Shown: one piece after another, positions 27,264-52,147 of the stretch
Layout: each line of letters starts with the position of its first letter
Numbering within the stretch: the stretch's first letter is position 1
Assembly: GCA_023474425.1 (NCBI GenBank)
Contig: JAMCXX010000002.1
Location: forward strand, 68,217-132,216
Direction of reading: 5' to 3'
From: Patescibacteria group bacterium
Lineage (GTDB): Bacteria; Patescibacteriota; WWE3; JAMCXX01
Length of the DNA stretch: 64,000 bases
Notes under the pieces: model-generated
What the model was told of the DNA's origin: nothing
The model's database searches: none
Seen by the model: the letters and a program-made list of their open reading frames with translations, nothing else
Position numbers and translations under genes: made by a program

Positions 27264-29090
27264 TTAACCTTCAACCTCGCCCCGGATGCGTCTAACGCCG
27301 GACGAGACGGCTTCCTCTTTAACAATTTTAAACCTTTTAAGCTCTCCGGTGTAATGGGCATGAGGGCCGCCGCAAAGCTCTTTAGAAAAATATTCGCCGG
27401 TGGTTTTTTCGGGACCGATTCTATACAGAGTCACTCTGTCCACGCTCTGGTACTTCTCTTCAAAGAGTGCTTCGGCGCCCTGGCTTCTGGCTTCCTCGAA
27501 AGAAGTGGTCAAGCATTCCACGGGAAGATTTTGGGCAATAGCGCGATTGACTAATTCCTCCACTTTCGCAAGTTCTACATCCGTCAGCTTACGTGAAAAA
27601 TTAAAGTCGTGGCGGAAAGACTTTTCGCTTATCTTTTGCCCCATCTGGTGGACTTCTAATCCTAGAATTTTCTTGAGAGCTGCGTTTAGAAGATGGGCGG
27701 CCGTGTGGGCGGTTTTAATTTTCTCCGGATCATACGCAGTTGCAGCGCGGGCGTCCCTCGACCTGTCCTTCTGCCTGGCCAAATTTTCCTCGAAGGCGGC
27801 CACGTCGACGTCAAACCCCTTGGCCTTGGCCAGGTCAACTGTTAAGTCAACGGGAAAACCGAGCGAGTCGTACAACCTGAAGGCAAAATCACCACCAACC
27901 TTTTTATTAGGATTTTTTCGTAAGTACTTGTCGAGTTCGGCCATCCCTCTTTTTAAAACGTCTCCGAACTTTTTCTCCTCATCTTCCAAAAGTTCGTGAA
28001 TGACGCTGTGAGTCTGGGCCAGATTTGGATAAGCTTCCTGAAACTCATTAACCACGGTTTCAGAAAGTTCGGAAACAAAGTAACCTTCAATTCCCAAAAG
28101 ATGACCGTGGGCAATAGCTCGGCGGATTAAGCGGCGCATAACATAACCTGCCTCTACATTGCTCGGGACTAAACCATCACTGGCCAAAAACGTAGACGCC
28201 CGCACGTGGTCGGCAATAATACGGACCGAACGTTCGTTAACGCGTTCGGCGGTAATCTTGGCTAGGGATTCTATTTCGGAGATTAAGGGCTTAAATAGAT
28301 CTGTATCGTAGGCGCTTTTGCCGCCCTGCAAAACCATGGCGAACCGCTCTAAACCCGCACCGGCGTCCACACTCTTTATGGGTAGGCTTTCCAAACTGCC
28401 ATCGGCTTTGCGCTCATAAGTCATAAAAACGCCGGCGTTCCAAATCTCTAGAAACCTGCCGCAGTCGTGAGTAGGCCCGCAGTCCGCCCGACCGCAGCCA
28501 AATTCCGGACCCAAGTCATAAAGAACATCGGTATTGGGACCGCAGGGGCCTTGTGGGCCGGAAAACCAAAAAGAATCTTTAAGGGGTAAACCAAGAATCC
28601 GTTCCGATCTGATACCCAAATCCAGCCAAATTTGACGGGTCTCGTTGTCTGGCGGCACACTGGACATACCACTATCGCCGCCAAAAACGCCAAAATACAG
28701 CTTGCCTTGGTCTATACCAAACTCCCTTAATAACTCAAGGGCAAATTCACATGCTTCCTTCTTAAAGTACGGGCCCCTGCCTTCCTTACCAAAAGGTTTA
28801 CCAATTTGACCAATACTCCAATTGCCCAGCATTTCAAAAAAAGTCAGATGGTGAATGTCGCCTACCTCGTCTATATCGTCGGTGCGTACGCATTTTTGAA
28901 CATCGGTTAGCCTTAACGAGGGAGGATTCTTTTGGCCCAAAAAATATGGTTTTAGGGGGGCCATACCGGAGTTGGTCAAAAGAAGTGTGGGGTCATACTC
29001 GGGAATGAGTGAAGCCGAGGGCAATCTTAAGTGCCCCCGCTTTTCAAAAAATTCAAGGAATTTATTTCTGATTTCGTTGTGTGACCACAT
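27264..29090 (-). CDS. alaS: Alanine--tRNA ligase, short form (608 aa; no C-terminal C-Ala/DHHA1 region)
   Basis: N-terminus MWSHNEIRNKFLEFFEKRGHLRLPSASLIP...LLTNSGMAPLKPYF. Editing-domain motifs HTAAHLL...CGGPH lie near the C-terminus. Confidence 0.92.
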   Translation of the reverse strand: MWSHNEIRNKFLEFFEKRGHLRLPSASLIPEYDPTLLLTNSGMAPLKPYFLGQKNPPSLRLTDVQKCVRTDDIDEVGDIHHLTFFEMLGNWSIGQIGKPFGKEGRGPYFKKEACEFALELLREFGIDQGKLYFGVFGGDSGMSSVPPDNETRQIWLDLGIRSERILGLPLKDSFWFSGPQGPCGPNTDVLYDLGPEFGCGRADCGPTHDCGRFLEIWNAGVFMTYERKADGSLESLPIKSVDAGAGLERFAMVLQGGKSAYDTDLFKPLISEIESLAKITAERVNERSVRIIADHVRASTFLASDGLVPSNVEAGYVMRRLIRRAIAHGHLLGIEGYFVSELSETVVNEFQEAYPNLAQTHSVIHELLEDEEKKFGDVLKRGMAELDKYLRKNPNKKVGGDFAFRLYDSLGFPVDLTVDLAKAKGFDVDVAAFEENLARQKDRSRDARAATAYDPEKIKTAHTAAHLLNAALKKILGLEVHQMGQKISEKSFRHDFNFSRKLTDVELAKVEELVNRAIAQNLPVECLTTSFEEARSQGAEALFEEKYQSVDRVTLYRIGPEKTTGEYFSKELCGGPHAHYTGELKRFKIVKEEAVSSGVRRIRGEVEG

Positions 29091-29096
29091 GGTTTA

Positions 29097-29125
29097 ATGA
29101 TAGGTAAAAAGGGGCGGGTTGACAA
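29097..29125 (-). promoter_or_regulatory. Sigma70-like promoter of alaS; predicts a leaderless mRNA
   Basis: On the minus strand, TTGTCA (29125-29120), 17 nt, TATCAT (29102-29097), then 6 nt (TAAACC) to the ATG at 29090. Confidence 0.55.
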
Positions 29126-29158
29126 TGCTTACGACCCCCCCCGCTGGTTTCGGAAGGT

Positions 29159-29164
29159 TATAAT
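29159..29164 (+). promoter_or_regulatory. -10-like TATAAT box upstream of the tRNA 5' fragment
   Basis: TATAAT lies 21 nt upstream of GGCGCGG (29186). No convincing -35 box. Confidence 0.35.
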
Positions 29165-29185
29165 ATCTGGTATCCTATTAGAAAC

Positions 29186-29202
29186 GGCGCGGTGGTGAAG
29201 TG
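29186..29202 (+). other. tRNA 5' fragment (acceptor 5' strand GGCGCGG plus TGGTGAAGTG) with no local 3' half
   Basis: 15 of its first 16 nt match the 5' end of the adjacent tRNA-Cys (GGCGCAGTGGTGAAGAG). It is perfectly complementary (7/7) to CCGCGCC at 29710-29716. No T-arm follows within 300 nt. Confidence 0.6.
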
Positions 29203-29232
29203 TCTCGCGGAGCGAGATCAGGCTTCGCCTGA
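29203..29232 (+). repeat. Double-hairpin module, copy A
   Basis: TCTCGC-GGA-GCGAGA followed directly by TCAGGC-TTC-GCCTGA. Lies upstream of the GIY-YIG ORF. Confidence 0.75.
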
Positions 29233-29248
29233 GAAACTACTAGAAAAG

Positions 29249-29506
29249 ATGTACTACGTCTACATACTTAAGAGTCTAAAGAACGGCGATGTTTATGTTG
29301 GTTACAGTGATGATTTAAAAAGAAGGTTTGACCAACATAATTCTGGTTCTGTTAGGTCAACACAATTTAACAGACCTTGGGATTTGCCCTATTACGAAGC
29401 ATATAAAGACAAACATGACGCAACAAAAAGGGAAAGGCAACTTAAAAATCACGCGGCTAAAAACGATTTGAAAAAACAGTTAGAATACAGTTTAGGAAAA
29501 ATTTAA
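29249..29506 (+). CDS. Small GIY-YIG nuclease-domain protein (85 aa; catalytic domain only)
   Basis: MYYVYILKSLKNGDVYVGYSDDLKRRFDQHNSG matches the GIY...YIG...R...H/N motif order. Visibly AT-rich relative to its flanks. The tracked GTG start at 29192 would read through the tRNA fragment and hairpins. Confidence 0.8.
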   Translation: MYYVYILKSLKNGDVYVGYSDDLKRRFDQHNSGSVRSTQFNRPWDLPYYEAYKDKHDATKRERQLKNHAAKNDLKKQLEYSLGKI

Positions 29507-29516
29507 TAATGAGTTT

Positions 29517-29548
29517 GGTCTCGCAGAGCGAGACCTTGCTCCGCAAGG
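29517..29548 (+). repeat. Double-hairpin module, copy B
   Basis: GGTCTCGC-AGA-GCGAGACC sharing CC with CCTTGC-TCC-GCAAGG. Starts 11 nt after the GIY-YIG stop, and its last GG is the first GG of tRNA-Cys. Confidence 0.75.
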
Positions 29549-29621
29549 CGCAGTGGTGAAGAGGTAACACGGCTGTCTGCAAAACAGCTACGCAGCGGTT
29601 CGATTCCGCTCTGCGCCTCCA
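29547..29621 (+). tRNA. tRNA-Cys (GCA), CCA encoded
   Basis: Hand fold: acceptor GGCGCAG/CTGCGCC, D arm GTG-AAGAGGTAA-CAC, anticodon arm GCTGT-CTGCAAA-ACAGC, T arm AGCGG-TTCGATT-CCGCT, discriminator U73, then CCA. Confidence 0.9.
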
Positions 29622-29629
29622 GATTTAAA

Positions 29630-29720
29630 GAGGTAGCGTGGTGACCTGTCTCGCGGAGCGAGATCTGGCCCCGCCAGACAAAACCTCGATGCGAGGGTTC
29701 GATTCCCTCCCGCGCCTCCA
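29630..29720 (+). other. tRNA-like element: degenerate 5' part, double hairpin, then intact T-arm, acceptor 3' strand and CCA
   Basis: T arm GAGGG-TTCGATT-CCCTC (29693-29709), CCGCGCC (29710-29716), T, CCA. The local 5' candidate GGTAGCG (29632-29638) has 3 mismatches. I could not draw a canonical D or anticodon arm. Confidence 0.55.
29649..29678 (+). repeat. Double-hairpin module, copy C
   Basis: TCTCGC-GGA-GCGAGA followed directly by TCTGGC-CCC-GCCAGA. Embedded in the tRNA-like element. Confidence 0.75.
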
Positions 29721-29805
29721 CATAAAGACCCTAGTGAGCTTCCGAACGAGTTTAGAATTTTATAGTGTCCCACGAAGCTTTAGCGAAGTAGGACAGATTT
29801 GATTT

Positions 29806-31500
29806 TCACTTCTTATTTCCCAAACAGGATTTAACAAAGGATATAAAGAGTGGGTGCGGGTTTAATGGACGGGATTTATATTCCGGATGAAATTGCGTGC
29901 CGACAAAAAATGGATGAACCGATTTGGGAAGCTCCAGTGCTTCCACCAATTTTCCGTCCGGAGATAAGGCACTAAAGACTAAACCCGCAGCTTCCAATTT
30001 TTGACGAAACTCATTGTTGACCTCATACCGATGCCTGTGCCTCTCTTCTATTTGGACATCCTTCTGACCTTCCGCCTTTGCCGAGGCTACGGCGGGCGGG
30101 CCTTCCAACCTATACGCCTCCTCGATGACCGATCCTCCTTTGAGGATCGCCGGCCATGAGCCGAGTCTAATTGTTCCGCCGTATTGATGAGCTTCCAGAT
30201 ATTTCTTCTGGTCAGGCATAATATGAATGACCGGATAAGGAGTTTTTGCGTCTGCTTCTTCGGAATTAGCACCGGTGAGACCACAAACATTCCGGGCGTA
30301 TTCAATAACAGCCATCTGCATACCAAAGCAAAGCCCCAGGTACGGGATTTTATTTTCCCTGGCAAACTTAATCGCCTCAATTTTCCCTTCGGTACCGCGA
30401 GAGCCCCAACCTTGGGGAATAACTACGCCATCAAATTTTAATTTGCTAACGCCCTCGGCGGTAAGTTCCGTGGAGTCCACGGGAACAACATTAACCTTTA
30501 CTTTATTAAACGAGGCGGCATGTTTTAGCGCTTCTAGAACAGAAACGTAGACATCTTTATGGCTGCTCTGGCCGTGGGTCACGTACTTCCCAACCAGGGC
30601 AATGTTTACTTCTTTTTTGGCTGTTTCCAAACCGGAAATAAAACTTTTCCACTCTTTAAAATCTGGCTCTTTTTCGGGGAGGCCGAATTTTGAAAGAATT
30701 TTTCTAGTGAGTCCGTTTTTATTAAAATTTACGGGGAGGTTATAAATTAAATCCAAATCAGGGTCGTCAAAAACGGCATCATCGTCCAAAAAACAGCGCT
30801 TGGCCAAGGTTTCACGGCGGGGTTCATCCAAGGGAACTTCGTCGCGGGTAATTAAAATGTCGGGGTTAATGCCGGCCTGACGCAAATTGGCCACGGCGTG
30901 TTGGGTGGGCTTGGTTTTAAGCTCACCCACATTTCTTAAAAACGGAACATAGGAAACCAGCACATAAAGGGCTTGCCTTTCGCGCCCCATTTCCCTAGCG
31001 GCATAAAGAAAGGGCAGATTTTCTATGTCGCCGGTGGTTCCGCCCACCTCCACCACTACAAAATCGTAACCATTTTCGCCCTCGTAAAAGCGTCTTTTAA
31101 TTTCGTTGGGGACGTCGGGAATCATCTCCACATCCCGGCCCTCATATTTAAACGAACGTTCGTTGGCAATAATGGTGCTAAAAATTTTGCCGGAAGTCAG
31201 ATTGTTTTCTTTGGAAAAGCTTTGGTTAAGAAACCGTTCGTAGTTGCCCAAATCCTGATCTATTTCGCCACCGTCGTCGGTCACAAAAACCTCGCCGTGT
31301 TCGGCCGGACGCATGGTTCCGGCATCAACGTTCAAATAGGGGTCAATTTTAAAAAGGTTAACTTTGTACCCGCAGGATTTAAGAAGAAGCCCAATGGAAG
31401 CAGTCACAATGCCTTTGCCGAGGCCGGATAAAACTCCGCCAACGACGAAAATGTATTTGGGAAATTTTTTAGAAACAGCATTCGACCGCGGCACAATCAA
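29806..31500 (-). CDS. pyrG: CTP synthase
   Basis: 564 aa with KYIFVVGGVLSGLGKG, plus GLCFGMQ and HRHRYEVN from the glutaminase domain. The start may be GTG at 31494 rather than TTG at 31500. Confidence 0.95.
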   Translation of the reverse strand: MIVPRSNAVSKKFPKYIFVVGGVLSGLGKGIVTASIGLLLKSCGYKVNLFKIDPYLNVDAGTMRPAEHGEVFVTDDGGEIDQDLGNYERFLNQSFSKENNLTSGKIFSTIIANERSFKYEGRDVEMIPDVPNEIKRRFYEGENGYDFVVVEVGGTTGDIENLPFLYAAREMGRERQALYVLVSYVPFLRNVGELKTKPTQHAVANLRQAGINPDILITRDEVPLDEPRRETLAKRCFLDDDAVFDDPDLDLIYNLPVNFNKNGLTRKILSKFGLPEKEPDFKEWKSFISGLETAKKEVNIALVGKYVTHGQSSHKDVYVSVLEALKHAASFNKVKVNVVPVDSTELTAEGVSKLKFDGVVIPQGWGSRGTEGKIEAIKFARENKIPYLGLCFGMQMAVIEYARNVCGLTGANSEEADAKTPYPVIHIMPDQKKYLEAHQYGGTIRLGSWPAILKGGSVIEEAYRLEGPPAVASAKAEGQKDVQIEERHRHRYEVNNEFRQKLEAAGLVFSALSPDGKLVEALELPKSVHPFFVGTQFHPEYKSRPLNPHPLFISFVKSCLGNKK

Positions 31501-48644: not shown

Positions 48645-51200
48645 ATGGTACCCTATTCTGCCTTTACCCGCCCAAACGAGAATGCTTTGGAACCCGGCAC
48701 GGAAATAGAGAAAAAACCGGAAAATCAAACGCCTTCGGAGCCGCTCAAAATTCTGCCCCGCGAAAACGAATCTCAAAAAGCTGTGAACAAAGAACCCGAA
48801 AGGGTTGTCCACCTTAAAGCTCGCGAAATTGAAACTCCTCAAATCAGCCAAAAAGAAAGTCAGATCGGTAACAATTCCCTACCGCTTTCGGAAACTGAAA
48901 TTAAGGAATACACCCGTTTTCCCATTTATACCGAGGTCCGCTGGCTGGCCGAGTGGAGCCTTAGGCAAATCAAAAAACTTAATCCTTTTTCTTCGCGCGG
49001 CGAAGTCGCTTCTTTAAATATGGTTTTTTTCGAGGTCACCACCCCACGTCAAAACGAAATTGAAATTCCGGCCGCCGAGCAGATGTTTGCCAATCTCGCC
49101 GGCCTCTACCGCGGCGGAATTTTTCACTTTTTAAAAAAACAGGTTTTCCTAAGCCTTGAAATCGTGGCCGATCCGGGAGAAATCCGTTTTGTGGTCGGCT
49201 GTCCAAAAGAGGTTAAAACCTTTGTGGAGAAACAGATTCACGGCTCCTACCCCGCGGCCGAAATTGTGGAAATTCCCGAATACAATCCTTTTAAAAAAGA
49301 GGGTTACGTTTCCCTAGCCGAGCTTGTTACCACAGGTCCCGCTTACTACTCCATTCAAACTTACAAGGAAGTGGAGGAGAAAATTGACCCCCTCAACAAC
49401 ATTACCTCGAGCCTTTCTAAACTTAACCCCAACGAGTCGGCTGTCATTCAAATAGCCATCTCCCCGGCCGGGCCGCATTGGTCGCAAAAAGGCCAGCGGG
49501 TGGTTTTTAAGTCCAAGAATGTGGACCCCGAGAAAAAACAATACGTCCTAGACGAACGGATTGTTGAAGGAATTAACAAAAAAATTGCCAAGCTGGGATT
49601 TTTTGCCGTCGTCCGCATTGTCTCCAGCTCGCCCGACCAAAATTCGGCCAAAATTCAGGCGGAAAACATTGCCCGCTCATTTGAGCAGTTTTCTGTGCCC
49701 CACCTGGCCTCTTTTCGCTCCAAGCCGATTTGGGTCAAAAAGTGGTTCATGCATGACTTTCTCTATCGCCACACGCCGCGTTTCCGGCACAACACCGTAC
49801 TTTCCACTGAAGAGTTAGCCACCATTTTTCACTTTCCGGGGAAACTTACTCAAACACCCAACATTAAGTGGATGCTTGCCAAAACCGGAGCACCGCCGCA
49901 AAACCTTCCGGCCGAAGGTTTGTATATAGGCATTTCCGCCTACCGCGGCGTACAAAAAGCGATTCATCTTAAAACCGACGACCGTCGACGCCATCTCTAT
50001 GTCATTGGGCAAACCGGCACGGGTAAATCGGAATTCTTAAAAATGCTGGCCCGCCAGGACATAAACGAAGGCCGTGGTTTGGCCTTTATTGACCCTCACG
50101 GCGATGCCGTGGAAGACTTACTCAAAACCATTCCCGAAAACCGGGTTGACGACGTCATTTATTTTGACCCCGGTGACACGCAGCGCCCACCGGGCCTAAA
50201 CATACTGGAAGCGGAAAGTGAAGAAGGAAAACATTTGGCCATTAACTCCTTTATTGCCCTCCTGTACAAACTCTACGACCCCAACCGCACCGGCATTATG
50301 GGGCCCCAGCTGGAGCGGGCCATCCGCAACGTAATGCTTACGGCCATGAGCGAGCCGGGAAATACTATGGTAGAAGTTTTGCGCCTCTTAACCGACCCGG
50401 CCTTTGCCAACTCCAAACTGCCGCTAATTGCCGACCCGTTAGTTAAGCGTTATTGGACCGATGAACTGGCCCGAACTTCCGATTTTCACAAGAGCGAAAA
50501 GCTGGGCTACTTTGTTTCCAAGTTCGACCGCTTTGTGACGGAAAAATTAATGAGAAACATTATTGGCCAGTCCACCTCCTCGTTTAACTTAAGGGGTGTA
50601 ATGGACCAAAAGAAAATTCTTCTAATCAATCTTTCCAAAGGCAAAATCGGCGAAGAAAATTCCAACTTTTTGGGGCTCATTCTCGTTCCCCGAATTCTCA
50701 TCGCCGCCATGAGCCGGGTGGACCAAAAGGAGGAAGAGCGGCAGGATTTTTACCTTTATGTGGACGAGTTCCAGAATTTTGCTACGCCGGACTTCGTGCA
50801 GATTCTCTCCGAAGCCCGCAAGTATCGCTTGAGCCTGCAGGTGGCTAATCAGTTTATTGGCCAGCTTGACGACAAAATTAAAGACGCCGTTTTTGGCAAT
50901 GTGGGCACAACCGTGGCCTTTAGGGTGGGTGCCGACGACGCCGAATATTTGGAGCACCAATTTGAGCCTTTATTTAACAAGTCTGATCTTTTGAACAGCC
51001 CCACCGGCCAGGCCTACATGCGCCTGCTTATTGACGGTCAGCCGTCAATACCTTTCTCCATGAAAGTTGATTGGAAAGTTATTTCGGCGGTGAGGAAGAA
51101 TTTAGAACTGGCGGAAAAAATTAAGGAAATCTCCCGCCAACGATATGGCCGAGATGCCAAACTCGTTGACGAGGAAATTAGGATTAGAAGCGGACTTTAA
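48645..51200 (+). CDS. TraD/VirD4 (type IV coupling protein)-like P-loop ATPase with an unassigned 400-aa N-terminal region and no TM helices
   Basis: 851 aa with Walker [26 protein letters not shown], Walker [11 protein letters not shown], and [19 protein letters not shown]...[13 protein letters not shown], typical of TraD/TraG/VirD4 C-terminal halves. Confidence 0.65.
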
Positions 51201-52147
51201 GTTATATCTCGTAACTCTTCCAAAAGCTCTCTTTCGCGCTTGCCGGGCTTTTTGGGGACGGCGATAATTATGCGCACATAGTGGTCACCGGTCCCACGAT
51301 TGGATTTAACACCCTTGCCTTTGATTCTAAAAACCGTGCCGCTCAAGGTACCGCTCGGAACCGAGAGCTTGACTGGACTCTGCACGGTCTCGACTTCTAT
51401 TTTGTCACCCAAAACCGCCTGCGGATAAGAAATTAAAACTTCCGAGAAAACGTCATCGCCCTCACGGTTAAACCGGGGATGTGTCCCTACCCGCAAACTA
51501 ATGTAAAGGTCCCCGTTTGGTAAATTCCGGCCATCGCGGGTGCGGCCCGGCTCACCTTCTCCGGCAAATCTAATCTTTGTTCCCGTACGGGCGCCTTGGG
51601 GAATTTTTACATGCAGGGTTTTGCCGTCAACGTTCACCGTTTTCTCCGAGCCGCTAACAGCTTCCATAAAATCTACATCCATTACATAACTTAAGTCGCG
51701 GCCCTTGTTCGGCTCCCGGCGTCCACCAAAACCTCTAAAACCGAATACGGATTCAAAAATGTCGAAGGGGTCGGCAAAGTCCCCTCCTTCAGAGAAACCC
51801 TCAAATCCATCAGCTGACGGACCGCCGGAAGAATAGGTATAGGTAAAGGGCCCCCACTGACCGGTTTGAGCGCCGCCAAAGGGGTTAAAGCCAGATTGTC
51901 CCGCGGAGCGGGATCCCGCCTCGCGGGAAAAGGCCGCGTGGCCAAAGCGGTCGTAGGCCGCCTTTTTCTGCGGGTCAGAAAGAATTTGGTAGGCTTCGTT
52001 AATTTCCTTAAAACGCGCCTCGGCTCCGGGGCTTTTGTCCACATCGGGATGGTGCTTGCGGGCCAATTCCCGGTAGGCCTTTTTAATTTCGTCGACTGCA
52101 GCGCCTTTTTTTAAACCCAATATTTCGTAATAGTCTCTTATTGGCAT
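51197..52147 (-). CDS. J-domain co-chaperone, CbpA-like (DnaJ lacking the CxxCxGxG zinc-finger domain)
   Basis: 316 aa with [31 protein letters not shown], a G/F-rich region and two C-terminal beta domains. Contains no cysteines. Confidence 0.85.

Follow-up and report, generated by a model that had tools for sequence, protein, structure and literature searches.

M, a 30-bp double-hairpin DNA element of Patescibacteria with a candidate GIY-YIG partner and a tRNA-replacing cassette

We analyzed a 64,000-nt stretch of the genome of a Patescibacteria group bacterium (contig JAMCXX010000002.1, positions 68,217 to 132,216; hereafter, the window), in which a pair of short hairpins occurs three times at a locus that encodes an 85-aa GIY-YIG nuclease and a tRNA-Cys. 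The hairpin pair is a copy of a 30-bp DNA block, here denoted M. Comparison of its copies and of their insertion sites shows that M is dispersed, is cleanly present or absent, leaves no target-site duplication and prefers the center of TTG^CAA (the caret marks the insertion point). M is a previously undescribed mini-palindrome akin to repetitive extragenic palindromic (REP) sequences and miniature inverted-repeat transposable elements (MITE) that comes with a candidate enzyme of a new class and with a cassette that replaces a tRNA.

On balance, we favor a reading in which M is a non-autonomous mobile DNA element of Patescibacteria, and we consider this reading, with all its steps, to be probable. 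The hairpins of M would act as single-stranded or cruciform DNA, not as RNA, and the GIY-YIG protein would be a structure-specific nuclease that recognizes or cleaves M and mobilizes it in trans. The GIY-YIG gene flanked by M would then be the counterpart of the REP-associated tyrosine transposase (RAYT) gene flanked by REPs. The cassette that consists of the nuclease and a tRNA would spread among tRNA genes in a homing-like manner, with the spare tRNA making the loss of the resident gene survivable.

The M unit, its fold and its dispersal

M is exactly 30 nt long, with the consensus TCNNSC-RRA-GSNNGA followed by TCNNSC-TYY-GSNNGA (139 distinct copies). Its two 15-nt halves, each a hairpin unit, are inverted relative to each other, with TC...GA at the ends and GATC in the center. 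M reads alike on both strands, either of which folds into a pair of 6-bp hairpins with 3-nt loops. The loops of hairpin 1 are mostly GAA (52 copies), GGA (45), AGA (21) and AAA (18), and the spectrum of hairpin 2 (TTC 48, TCC 45, TCT 26, TTT 14) is the reverse complement of that of hairpin 1. The stems of the two hairpins are usually different and are identical in only 18 of the 139 copies.

The three copies in the window that had been described in an earlier note made from the sequence alone (M_A, M_B and M_C; Table 1) are perfect and fold in the way that was reported there; only the start of M_B had to be shifted, from 29517 to 29519, the two Gs at 29517-29518 being the displaced G1G2 of a tRNA. 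A scan of the window detects one more perfect double hairpin of the 6-bp/3-nt type, within dnaJ, which brings the number of perfect copies to four per 64 kb; double hairpins with two or three mismatches are at chance level (37 in the window vs. 24 expected). The hairpin 1 pattern, TCTCGCNNNGCGAGA, is found three times in the window, compared to 0.09 expected occurrences, and none of 100 shuffles reaches this number. Scans for a role of M as a sigma-70 promoter or a terminator gave nothing beyond the shuffle expectation.

The second hairpins of M_A, M_B and M_C differ at three stem positions, and all these changes are compensated (TCAGGC/GCCTGA, CCTTGC/GCAAGG and TCTGGC/GCCAGA), as had been pointed out together with the proposal that the structure rather than the sequence is maintained. 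To avoid a circular pairing test, we applied a pattern that contains only the anchors, TC-N11-GATC-N11-GA, to the fetched loci. Among the 39 sites that match it, 31 have eight of the eight inner pairs in the Watson-Crick form, 2 have seven and 6 have at most four, a bimodal distribution. In 34 copies from the nuclease loci, double changes occur at 8 of the 12 pairs, and there are no one-sided changes. The pattern used for metagenomes, TCNNGCRRAGCNNGATCNNGCTYYGCNNGA, similarly fixes only the anchors and the loop classes and leaves four stem pairs free; it misses variants of the M_B type and of the CC type. In 109 distinct metagenome copies, 94.3% of the cells pair, compared to 51.6% in shuffles, with 214 double changes and a covariation score of 1.096, compared to 0.279 in shuffles, none of which (0 of 500) reaches the observed score. 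Among the metagenome matches listed, all four free pairs are Watson-Crick in 110 of 135, compared to 0.4% expected by chance. This very strong covariation bears out the proposal that it is the structure that is conserved. Folding of M into a single 15-bp hairpin was rejected: this model pairs 81.8% of the cells, compared to 99.5% in the two-hairpin model, with mostly mismatched bases at positions 3, 4, 12 and 13.

As single-stranded DNA, both strands of each copy adopt the two-hairpin fold, with an energy of about -10.3 kcal/mol and a z-score of about -3 to -4. We infer that the hairpins matter in DNA, single-stranded or cruciform, rather than in RNA, because the consensus is strand-symmetric, G·U pairs are nearly absent (9 of 436 cells in the 109 metagenome copies), copies within open reading frames (ORFs) are translated, and there is no Rfam match. 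The same observations, along with the complete lack of one-sided changes in the 34 copies, make it very improbable that M functions at the RNA level, be it as a processing signal, as a stabilizer or insulator of the nuclease mRNA and the tRNA precursor, or as a protein-spliced mini-intron. Such functions would be compatible with the stability of the hairpins, with the location of M_A in the 5' leader of the ORF and of M_B in the leader of the tRNA, and with the effect of REP hairpins on mRNA stability (PMC3733652). However, a role in RNA does not require the same consensus on both strands, the copies within ORFs occur in all three frames, stay open and are translated as 10 residues, and excision of M never yields a tRNA.

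Further copies, which the earlier note had proposed to look for, are numerous. Metagenome contigs contain at least 135 copies of M on at least 120 contigs; in viral contigs, the same pattern gave 0 matches, on which ground a phage origin of M was rejected. Of the 135 metagenome matches listed, 18 (~13%) have a GIY-YIG homolog at a distance of no more than 600 nt, and 26 have a tRNA at no more than 300 nt; by these two distance limits, 105 of the 135 are near neither. Of the good copies listed, 47 of 129 lie inside long ORFs, in all three phases, and the rest are intergenic. The copies within ORFs keep the frame open and are translated as 10 extra residues, for example, SGEAGSGSAG.

The clearest case of presence and absence comes from SecA. 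Among five SecA sequences that are 98-99% identical (P0295-P0299), two contain the insert SRGAGSGSAG and three lack it. The difference between the respective DNA sequences (L189 4111-4140 vs. L211 about 2650) is exactly 30 bp, with identical flanks, CAACTA^AAATC, and no duplication. This polymorphism is either a recent insertion or a precise excision, and filled and empty sites of this kind are ready strain markers for population genomics. The H+-pyrophosphatase encoded in L167 (3619-5643) contains exactly ten extra residues, SGEAGSGSAG, in a conserved loop (IPGLM^EGTAKPEY) when compared to PDB 8b37. M is also present in the genes for polynucleotide phosphorylase (PNPase; L097), DnaK and DnaJ (both in L192) and in an aminoacyl-tRNA-synthetase-like gene (L105). 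The dnaJ copy of the window has a homolog with one compensated stem change in L086 and a decayed version in L087, and three metagenome loci, L113 and L192 among them, have M at other positions of the DnaJ G/F linker. As a clean 10-aa insertion, the window DnaJ is ambiguous when compared to its homologs, because the length of the G/F linker is variable among them and M is present in homologous or decayed form in the relatives; SecA and H+-pyrophosphatase provide the clean cases. The genomes of Patescibacteria, or the Candidate Phyla Radiation, are tiny and streamlined, and yet, a selfish 30-bp element adds 10 residues to SecA, H+-pyrophosphatase, DnaJ, DnaK and PNPase and riddles the tRNA loci.

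The bases that flank the 139 distinct copies show a preference for T, T and G at positions -3, -2 and -1 and for C, A and A at positions +1, +2 and +3, that is, for the center of the palindromic sequence TTG^CAA. In tRNA-Cys, U33-G34^C35-A36 provides this preferred target, and the bias of M toward Cys among the tRNAs is explained by this match.

The earlier note further suggested that the module was derived from, or mimicked, the anticodon arm and the variable arm of a class-II tRNA. That it is either such a mimic or a recombination site of the attC or att type is next to inconceivable. The copies in the window are indeed embedded in tRNA-like sequence, the direct repeats bracket a cargo, and the GGA and AGA loops had been read as serine anticodons. 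However, the loops simply follow the RRA/TYY consensus, which is the same on both strands; in comparison with the intact tRNA, M is an insertion rather than a remodeled arm; and the same discrete 30-bp insert is found in intergenic DNA and within SecA, H+-pyrophosphatase, DnaJ, DnaK and PNPase. No integrase adjoins the window copies, their neighbors being alaS, pyrG and the GIY-YIG gene, and M is far shorter than attC. The class-II arm, which has a 7-nt anticodon loop with U33 and is native to a tRNA gene, was rejected as a candidate also in view of the 3-nt loops of M, its absence from the orthologous intact tRNA and its presence in protein genes. An attC site is an imperfect palindrome with R''/L''-L'/R' boxes and extrahelical bases that is found beside gene cassettes and the IntI integrase; M, with two perfect 6-bp stems without bulges in 30 bp, and with no integrase beside the window copies, was rejected as such a site.

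The tRNA-Cys locus of the window

The three tRNA-associated copies of M are located between alaS (27264-29090, minus strand) and pyrG (29806-31500, minus strand). Two related loci, L210 and L209, in which AlaRS is 77-78% identical to that of the window, represent the empty site: a single intact tRNA-Cys gene, GGCGCGGTGGCGAAGTGGAAACGCTGGGGTCTGCAAAACCTCGATGCGAGGGTTCGATTCCCTCCCGCGCCTCCA, lies between pyrG and alaS, and there is no M, no nuclease gene and no second tRNA gene at the pyrG-alaS locus of either. In L210, the tRNA-Cys gene directly adjoins alaS; in L209, three extra genes are located between them.

In the window, this resident gene is split into pieces that are interspersed with the three copies of M (Table 1). 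Its 3' terminal part (29679-29720) is identical to the intact tRNA-Cys of both L210 and L209 in 42 of 42 nt, and the two halves of the acceptor stem, GGCGCGG and CCGCGCC (29711-29717), pair perfectly over a distance of 530 nt. Because the intact tRNA-Cys of L209 and L210 matches the window fragments, M_A is recognizable as a clean insertion at AAGTG^GAAAC, where the empty site in these relatives reads ...GAAGTGGAAACGC, and M_C as a clean insertion at CTG^CAAAA, with the sequence CAAAACCTCGATGCGAGGGTTCGATTCCCTCCCGCGCCTCCA on its 3' side. The notion that M_C is a solo copy within a tRNA-like element can thus be made precise: the element is made up of the 3' part of the resident tRNA-Cys that was displaced, with M_C exactly between G34 and C35. 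The same insertion site is shared by 12 other copies in relatives.

The comparison with L209 and L210 also identifies the block from the ORF to the called tRNA as a foreign cassette in the D arm of the resident gene. The cargo tRNA has the acceptor stem GGCGCAG/CTGCGCC, and its D arm, anticodon stem and T stem are unlike those of the resident and orthologous tRNA-Cys. M_A ends 16 nt 5' of the ATG of the nuclease ORF. Hairpin 2 of M_B ends with CC...GG instead of TC...GA; the final GG now constitutes G1G2 of the tRNA, and the CC maintains the pairing. This arrangement recurs in L003-L007 and in L011. The alignments show a course of events in which an ancestral pyrG - tRNA-Cys - alaS locus, with a single tRNA-Cys, apparently received a cassette of the nuclease gene and a foreign tRNA-Cys gene that split the resident gene. 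They further show the resident 5' piece with M_A and the 3' piece with M_C to be apparently dead, and the cargo tRNA-Cys, preceded by M_B, to be the predicted functional gene now.

Table 1 Features of the tRNA-Cys locus and the additional M copy of the window
Feature	Position	Strand	Evidence and context
TATAAT-like -10 element	29159..29164	+	Upstream of the resident tRNA-Cys; read from the sequence
Resident tRNA-Cys, 5' fragment (nt 1-17), GGCGCGGTGGTGAAGTG	29186..29202	+	16/17 match to L209/L210 tRNA-Cys, plus upstream flank
M_A, TCTCGC-GGA-GCGAGA / TCAGGC-TTC-GCCTGA	29203..29232		Clean insertion, AAGTG^GAAAC, in D-loop of resident tRNA-Cys
Resident tRNA-Cys, nt 18-22 (GAAAC)	29233..29237	+	Last resident bases before the cassette; comparison with L210
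GIY-YIG ORF, 85 aa	29249..29506	+	PF01541, E=2e-18
M_B, TCTCGC-AGA-GCGAGA / CCTTGC-TCC-GCAAGG	29519..29548		Between G2 and C3 of cargo tRNA-Cys
Cargo tRNA-Cys(GCA), intact	29547..29621	+	ARAGORN; Rfam tRNA, 63.2 bits
Resident tRNA-Cys, 3' fragment: decayed D-arm and anticodon-stem part ending ...CTG (U33 G34)	29630..29648	+	By-eye match to L210 ...AAACGCTGGGGTCTG; not placed by MAFFT
M_C, TCTCGC-GGA-GCGAGA / TCTGGC-CCC-GCCAGA	29649..29678		Clean insertion, TG^CA (G34^C35), in anticodon loop of resident tRNA-Cys
Resident tRNA-Cys, 3' fragment: C35, 3' strand of anticodon stem, variable loop, T arm, 3' strand of acceptor, U73, CCA	29679..29720	+	
Fourth M, TCCCGC-GGA-GCGGGA / TCCCGC-CTC-GCGGGA	51899..51928		In frame, G/F linker of dnaJ (51197-52147, minus strand)

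In two other relatives, L012 and L014, deletion of the segment from the start of the left M through the end of the right M rebuilds a complete, ARAGORN-positive tRNA-Cys, so that the M-bounded block in these loci is a precise insertion at G34^C35. Rebuilding the resident tRNA of the window by joining across M_A and M_C failed: M_A and M_C are inserted at different positions of the tRNA, and the pieces have decayed. An Rfam search of 28900-30000 by E-value detected tRNA-Cys and, otherwise, only sub-threshold matches of the T arm to tmRNA and mascRNA; the partial matches to tmRNA and tRNA-like families come from the T arm of the 3' fragment.

In L209, the flank that separates the -10 element from the start of the resident tRNA, TATCCTATTAGAAAC, is conserved in front of the intact orthologous tRNA-Cys. 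Because no -35 element is present, the -10 element was not called in the promoter scan. It probably drives the transcription of the 5' fragment, M_A and the GIY-YIG ORF.

The public gene calls start the nuclease ORF at a GTG codon at 29192 (P0001, 104 aa, 29192-29506) and read through M_A. All homologs of the nuclease start with MYYVY, which corresponds to 29249, and the extension to 29192 is probably an artefact of the stop-free M. More generally, M complicates annotation, with pieces of tRNA pseudogenes, over-extended ORF calls such as P0001 and puzzling 10-aa indels.

Several differences in gene order are apparent among these loci. The whole tRNA-Cys locus of the window (about 29170-29730), including the promoter flank, is inverted relative to pyrG and alaS when compared to L209 (1106-1216) and L210 (2890-3000), in both of which tRNA-Cys is co-directional with pyrG and alaS. 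A gene for a PIN-domain toxin, accompanied by a small upstream ORF, is located directly upstream of alaS in L208 (1164-1795) and L209 (2350-2992). The small ORF encodes a ribbon-helix-helix (RHH) antitoxin domain in L208 and has no Pfam match in L209. Neither the window nor L210 contains the toxin pair, which in L209 is found between pyrG and alaS. This pair adds to the signs that the region upstream of alaS is a hot spot for accessory DNA.

The GIY-YIG nuclease and its M-bearing loci

The 85-aa protein is a stand-alone catalytic domain of the UPF0213/Slx1 type. Its matches among the PDB sequences are the UPF0213 proteins 1zg2 and 1ywl (BH0048 and EF2693), followed by SLX1. The AlphaFold model (pLDDT 94) is most similar in fold to UPF0213 proteins and the nuclease domain of Slx1 (TMq 0.6-0.7), ahead of the catalytic domain of I-TevI (0.49) and UvrC. 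The catalytic Y/Y/R/H/E positions are invariant in 33 homologs. Matches to PHROGs are to generic families of GIY-YIG homing endonucleases, and the PADLOC matches for defense systems are negligible. According to the titles of PDB entries 6seh and 7cq4, the structures that Slx1 cuts are branched DNA and stem-loop DNA.

For the analysis of relatives, we collected homologs of the 85-aa protein with their contigs, together with 80 loci from reference genomes. The hosts are mostly Patescibacteria, in particular, Microgenomates, Levybacteria, Gottesmanbacteria, Woesebacteria and Collierbacteria. Several metagenome-assembled genomes (among them L007, L008, L013-L017, L019 and L024) have loci that resemble those of Patescibacteria in nuclease clade, M and tRNA layout and are titled 'uncultured Gammaproteobacteria' or 'Pseudomonadales', labels that look unreliable.

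The 505 kb of GIY-YIG loci contain 40 copies of M, compared to ~1.3 double hairpins in shuffles, and the association depends on the similarity of the nuclease to that of the window. Among the 31 loci with at least 55% identity, 28 have a co-directional tRNA gene 0-150 nt downstream (Cys in 19, Ile in 4, Leu in 3 and Ser in 2) and 26 have M nearby. At 45-55% identity (45 loci), a downstream tRNA is found in 6 and M in 4; below 45% (14 loci), the respective numbers are 2 and 1. The linkage of the module to GIY-YIG ORFs and tRNA genes, which had been anticipated from the window alone along with its mobility, is accordingly strong in relatives with at least 55% identity and rare in the distant homologs. 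In the group with at least 55% identity, 18 loci have an upstream M that ends 7-38 nt before the ATG, and 16 have a downstream M, located either 14-26 nt after the stop codon, in the manner of M_B, abutting the tRNA, or 87-126 nt after it, just beyond the tRNA. The layouts that recur are M - ORF - tRNA - M and ORF - M - tRNA. The description of M_A and M_B as ends that flank the ORF like those of a mobile element is thus roughly right, except that M_B interrupts the very start of the cargo tRNA.

In the 3-kb flanks of the nuclease loci, no M was found away from the ORF, all copies being within ~320 nt of it. Clustering of the nucleases places 37 in the cluster of the window protein (cluster 8), of which 33 are accompanied by an M with the GC-closing stem. 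A small subclade (L033, L034, L068 and L069) has an M subtype of its own, TCSGCC...GGCSGA / TCAGCC...GGCTGA, so that the M subtype tracks the nuclease subclade. The other clusters lack M, save for one copy beside L170 (cluster 7). Conversely, when the ORFs within 1.5 kb of 129 metagenome copies of M were clustered blindly, GIY-YIG came out as the top family (10 loci, median distance 14 nt). The runners-up were housekeeping genes, DnaJ (3 loci) and a serine recombinase (3 loci), and apart from the three serine recombinases, no other nuclease or transposase family was recurrent near these copies.

When the 40 copies are mapped onto the neighboring intact tRNA, 13 are located after nt 33 (G34^C35), 8 after nt 2, 8 after nt 12/13 and 3 at ~nt 60. 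These insertions are clean, with no duplication, as in CTG^M^CAAAA in tRNA-Cys, GAACG^M^CTTTCC in tRNA-Ile, GGGGTT^M^CGATTCCCC in a T loop and GCCGGGGTG^M^GCGA in tRNA-Leu. The tRNA pieces that host M are truncated and lie beside an intact tRNA, and in silico excision of the 40 copies yields no new ARAGORN tRNA. For these two reasons, M is not an intron of a complete gene; given also that no group I or other Rfam family is detected, a tRNA intron of either the group I or the bulge-helix-bulge type was rejected.

Two further observations pertain to M in tRNA fragments. Tandem repeats of M-bearing 3' fragments of tRNA-Cys are present in L020 (3344-3461, with a period of 88 nt) and in L012 (from 3371 to the contig end), which suggests repeated rounds of break repair or slippage. 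Three metagenome loci, one of them in L158 (10638-12242), contain a gene for a large serine recombinase whose end is ~10 nt away from a tRNA-Cys fragment that carries M, and no GIY-YIG gene adjoins it; these are probably integrative elements at tRNA-Cys whose displaced tRNA piece gained M.

By analogy with RAYT and REPs, we infer that the GIY-YIG protein may mobilize or use M. A more specific version of this mechanism, which is possible but which we advance tentatively, holds that the 85-aa Slx1-type GIY-YIG protein recognizes both hairpins of M, cuts at the G^TC / GA^C junctions and transfers M, along with any cargo bounded by M, to TTG^CAA sites with no duplication. The nuclease gene itself would reside in an M-flanked cassette that disrupts a resident tRNA gene and provides the substitute, which would make the cassette difficult to lose. 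If this is true, M would be the first DNA element mobilized by a stand-alone GIY-YIG domain, and a function would be assigned to the widespread UPF0213 family. The combination of a nuclease with a spare tRNA would amount to a selfish gene that supplies a substitute for an essential gene of its own destruction. M is a compact and exact substrate (30 bp, with a palindromic target and no duplication) for which there is one obvious candidate enzyme, of 85 aa, that should be easily expressed. Hence both the movement of REP-like mini-palindromes and the role of the UPF0213/YhbQ-type GIY-YIG proteins are directly testable via M.

Several observations weigh against a direct role of the nuclease. The protein lacks a DNA-binding domain; most of the metagenome copies are far from GIY-YIG homologs; and M occurs in the tRNA-Cys fragments next to the serine recombinase genes. 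The clustering of M at GIY-YIG loci could come, in part, from dead tRNA-Cys pieces that are neutral and well-matched TG^CA targets, and the correspondence between M subtypes and nuclease subclades could reflect shared host lineages. Furthermore, the cargo tRNA-Cys retains TG^CA and, in L012, is identical to the fragments; because the cargo keeps the same site, a homing logic in which M protects the cut site is incomplete.

According to the main rival explanation, the association is indirect: M is moved by another enzyme, lost or not yet named, as proposed for CGTC-type REPs, the GIY-YIG protein is no more than a free-standing homing endonuclease directed at tRNA genes, and M gathers on the leftover dead tRNA fragments, which are neutral, preferred sites. 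In addition to the recombinase loci and the 105 of 135 listed metagenome copies that have neither a GIY-YIG homolog nor a tRNA nearby, the insertion sites of M_A (TG^GA) and M_C (TG^CA) fit the general target preference, and REP families without a dedicated transposase are known (PMC3733652). We nevertheless consider this explanation rather unlikely. The distance between the upstream M and the ATG is 7-38 nt in every case, regardless of the position in the tRNA fragment (nt 6, 9, 12, 17, 25 or 33) and of the tRNA involved (Cys, Ile, Leu, Tyr or Ser), a regularity that independent events would hardly produce, and the copies of the M_B type are inherited with the ORF at a poor target, GG^CG. The near-confinement of M to nuclease cluster 8, the distinct subtype in a separate subclade and the lack of another recurrent nuclease or transposase family near M, the three serine recombinases aside, likewise argue for a specific link.

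A different role for M would be to block the target. In this scenario, the GIY-YIG protein cleaves tRNA genes that are still naive, such as that of tRNA-Cys at its TG^CA; M occupies the cut site, confers immunity and forces repair that copies M - ORF - tRNA - M, solo copies being by-products. The precise M-to-M blocks at G34^C35 in L012 and L014 are consistent with this scenario, as is the difference between the outer halves of the resident gene and the cargo tRNA, and there is a precedent in SegB-like GIY-YIG homing enzymes, which recognize tRNA genes and co-convert their neighbors (PMC2330249). The scenario appears improbable all the same, given that the TG^CA of the cargo tRNA is uninterrupted and the cargo can be equal to the fragments (L012), that M is inserted at many different positions of tRNAs, and that its occurrence at many non-tRNA sites, including those in frame within proteins, is not explained by homing. 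Mobilization of M in trans by the nuclease is the reading that we favor.

Known systems compared

In terms of function, the closest analogue of M appears to be the REP/REPIN-RAYT system (REPtron). REPs are short (20-40 bp), GC-rich palindromic repeats that are dispersed in genomes, sometimes inside genes, occur in inverted pairs, and are thought to act as single-stranded DNA hairpins; the RAYT gene, which putatively mobilizes them, is itself flanked by the repeats and encodes an HUH tyrosine transposase similar to that of IS200/IS605, and the REP tag, at one end of the palindrome, is GTAG or CGTC (PMC3733652). Like REPs with RAYT, M is dispersed in many copies, and the GIY-YIG gene is accompanied by M in 26 of the 31 loci. 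Unlike REPs, M has no GTAG or CGTC tag, even with the flanks included (139 copies), and each half of M is a hairpin in itself. Unlike RAYT, the M-flanked gene encodes a PF01541 GIY-YIG protein rather than an HUH tyrosine transposase; it is linked to one tRNA gene and resides within another, disrupted one.

In terms of architecture, M appears to be closest to the double-hairpin elements (DHEs) of fungal mitochondria. In the passages of PMC7218506 and PMC5910586 that cite Paquin, Laforest & Lang 2000, the DHEs of Allomyces and other fungal mitochondrial DNA are described as short, GC-rich, consisting of two adjacent stem-loops and optional between relatives; in the same passages, they are inferred to be mobile, and a role in gene transfer is suggested. 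M shares all these features of DHEs (short, GC-rich, two adjacent stem-loops, optional between relatives), a likeness of architecture and function only: M is bacterial, not mitochondrial, and there is no sequence relationship. The length of DHEs is variable, 26-79 bp, and we know of no DHE with a fixed 30-bp unit, a TTG^CAA target or a tie to a clade of Slx1-type nucleases. In Allomyces, a DHE is reportedly located at the border of an inserted endonuclease ORF and a duplicated segment of atp6, a logic like that of an ORF with a spare tRNA.

Rickettsia palindromic elements (RPEs) are palindromic selfish DNA inserted in frame in conserved protein genes and tolerated as an extra peptide; they are about 100-150 bp long and CGTC-tagged. 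Like RPEs, M is found in frame in protein genes; unlike them, it is 30 bp (10 codons) long, has another architecture and resides in another host phylum. RPEs as well as REPs inside genes are mentioned in the REP literature (PMC3733652).

The comparison with the single-stranded DNA hairpins of IS200/IS605, which was already made in the earlier note, is reasonable as a functional analogy: M forms hairpins, has a short specific target, causes no target-site duplication and is compatible with a single-stranded DNA logic. Unlike IS200/IS605, M is associated with neither TnpA (Y1/HUH) nor TnpB, the only ORF between the window copies being that of the 85-aa GIY-YIG protein; its target is palindromic and cut at the center, not 3' of a tetranucleotide; and the element consists of just two hairpins.

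As for the nuclease, the best sequence and fold matches of the 85-aa protein are to the UPF0213 and Slx1 proteins. Slx1 contains an additional zinc-finger domain and requires Slx4. To our knowledge, bacterial UPF0213 proteins have no reported function, nor is any of them known to be the partner of a repeat element. The earlier note knew of no described element with this layout, and we likewise found no description of M in the literature on UPF0213/YhbQ proteins, on GIY-YIG nucleases and tRNA, and on repeats of Patescibacteria, with coverage of this literature being incomplete. A survey of tRNA introns in Patescibacteria makes no mention of hairpin or palindromic insertions, tRNA-Cys or GIY-YIG (PMC13011429).

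Finally, the cassette is comparable to those of homing endonucleases. SegB of phage T4 is a GIY-YIG homing enzyme encoded between tRNA genes that recognizes the sequence of a tRNA gene, with a 27-bp recognition site, and drives the co-inheritance of itself and the neighboring tRNA genes; it was cloned as a 687-bp fragment (PMC2330249). As with homing endonuclease cassettes, the ORF studied here is optional between relatives, and the target is intact at the empty site (L209 and L210). Unlike SegB, a much larger protein, the window protein is a bare 85-aa catalytic domain that is bacterial, chromosomally encoded and accompanied by M.

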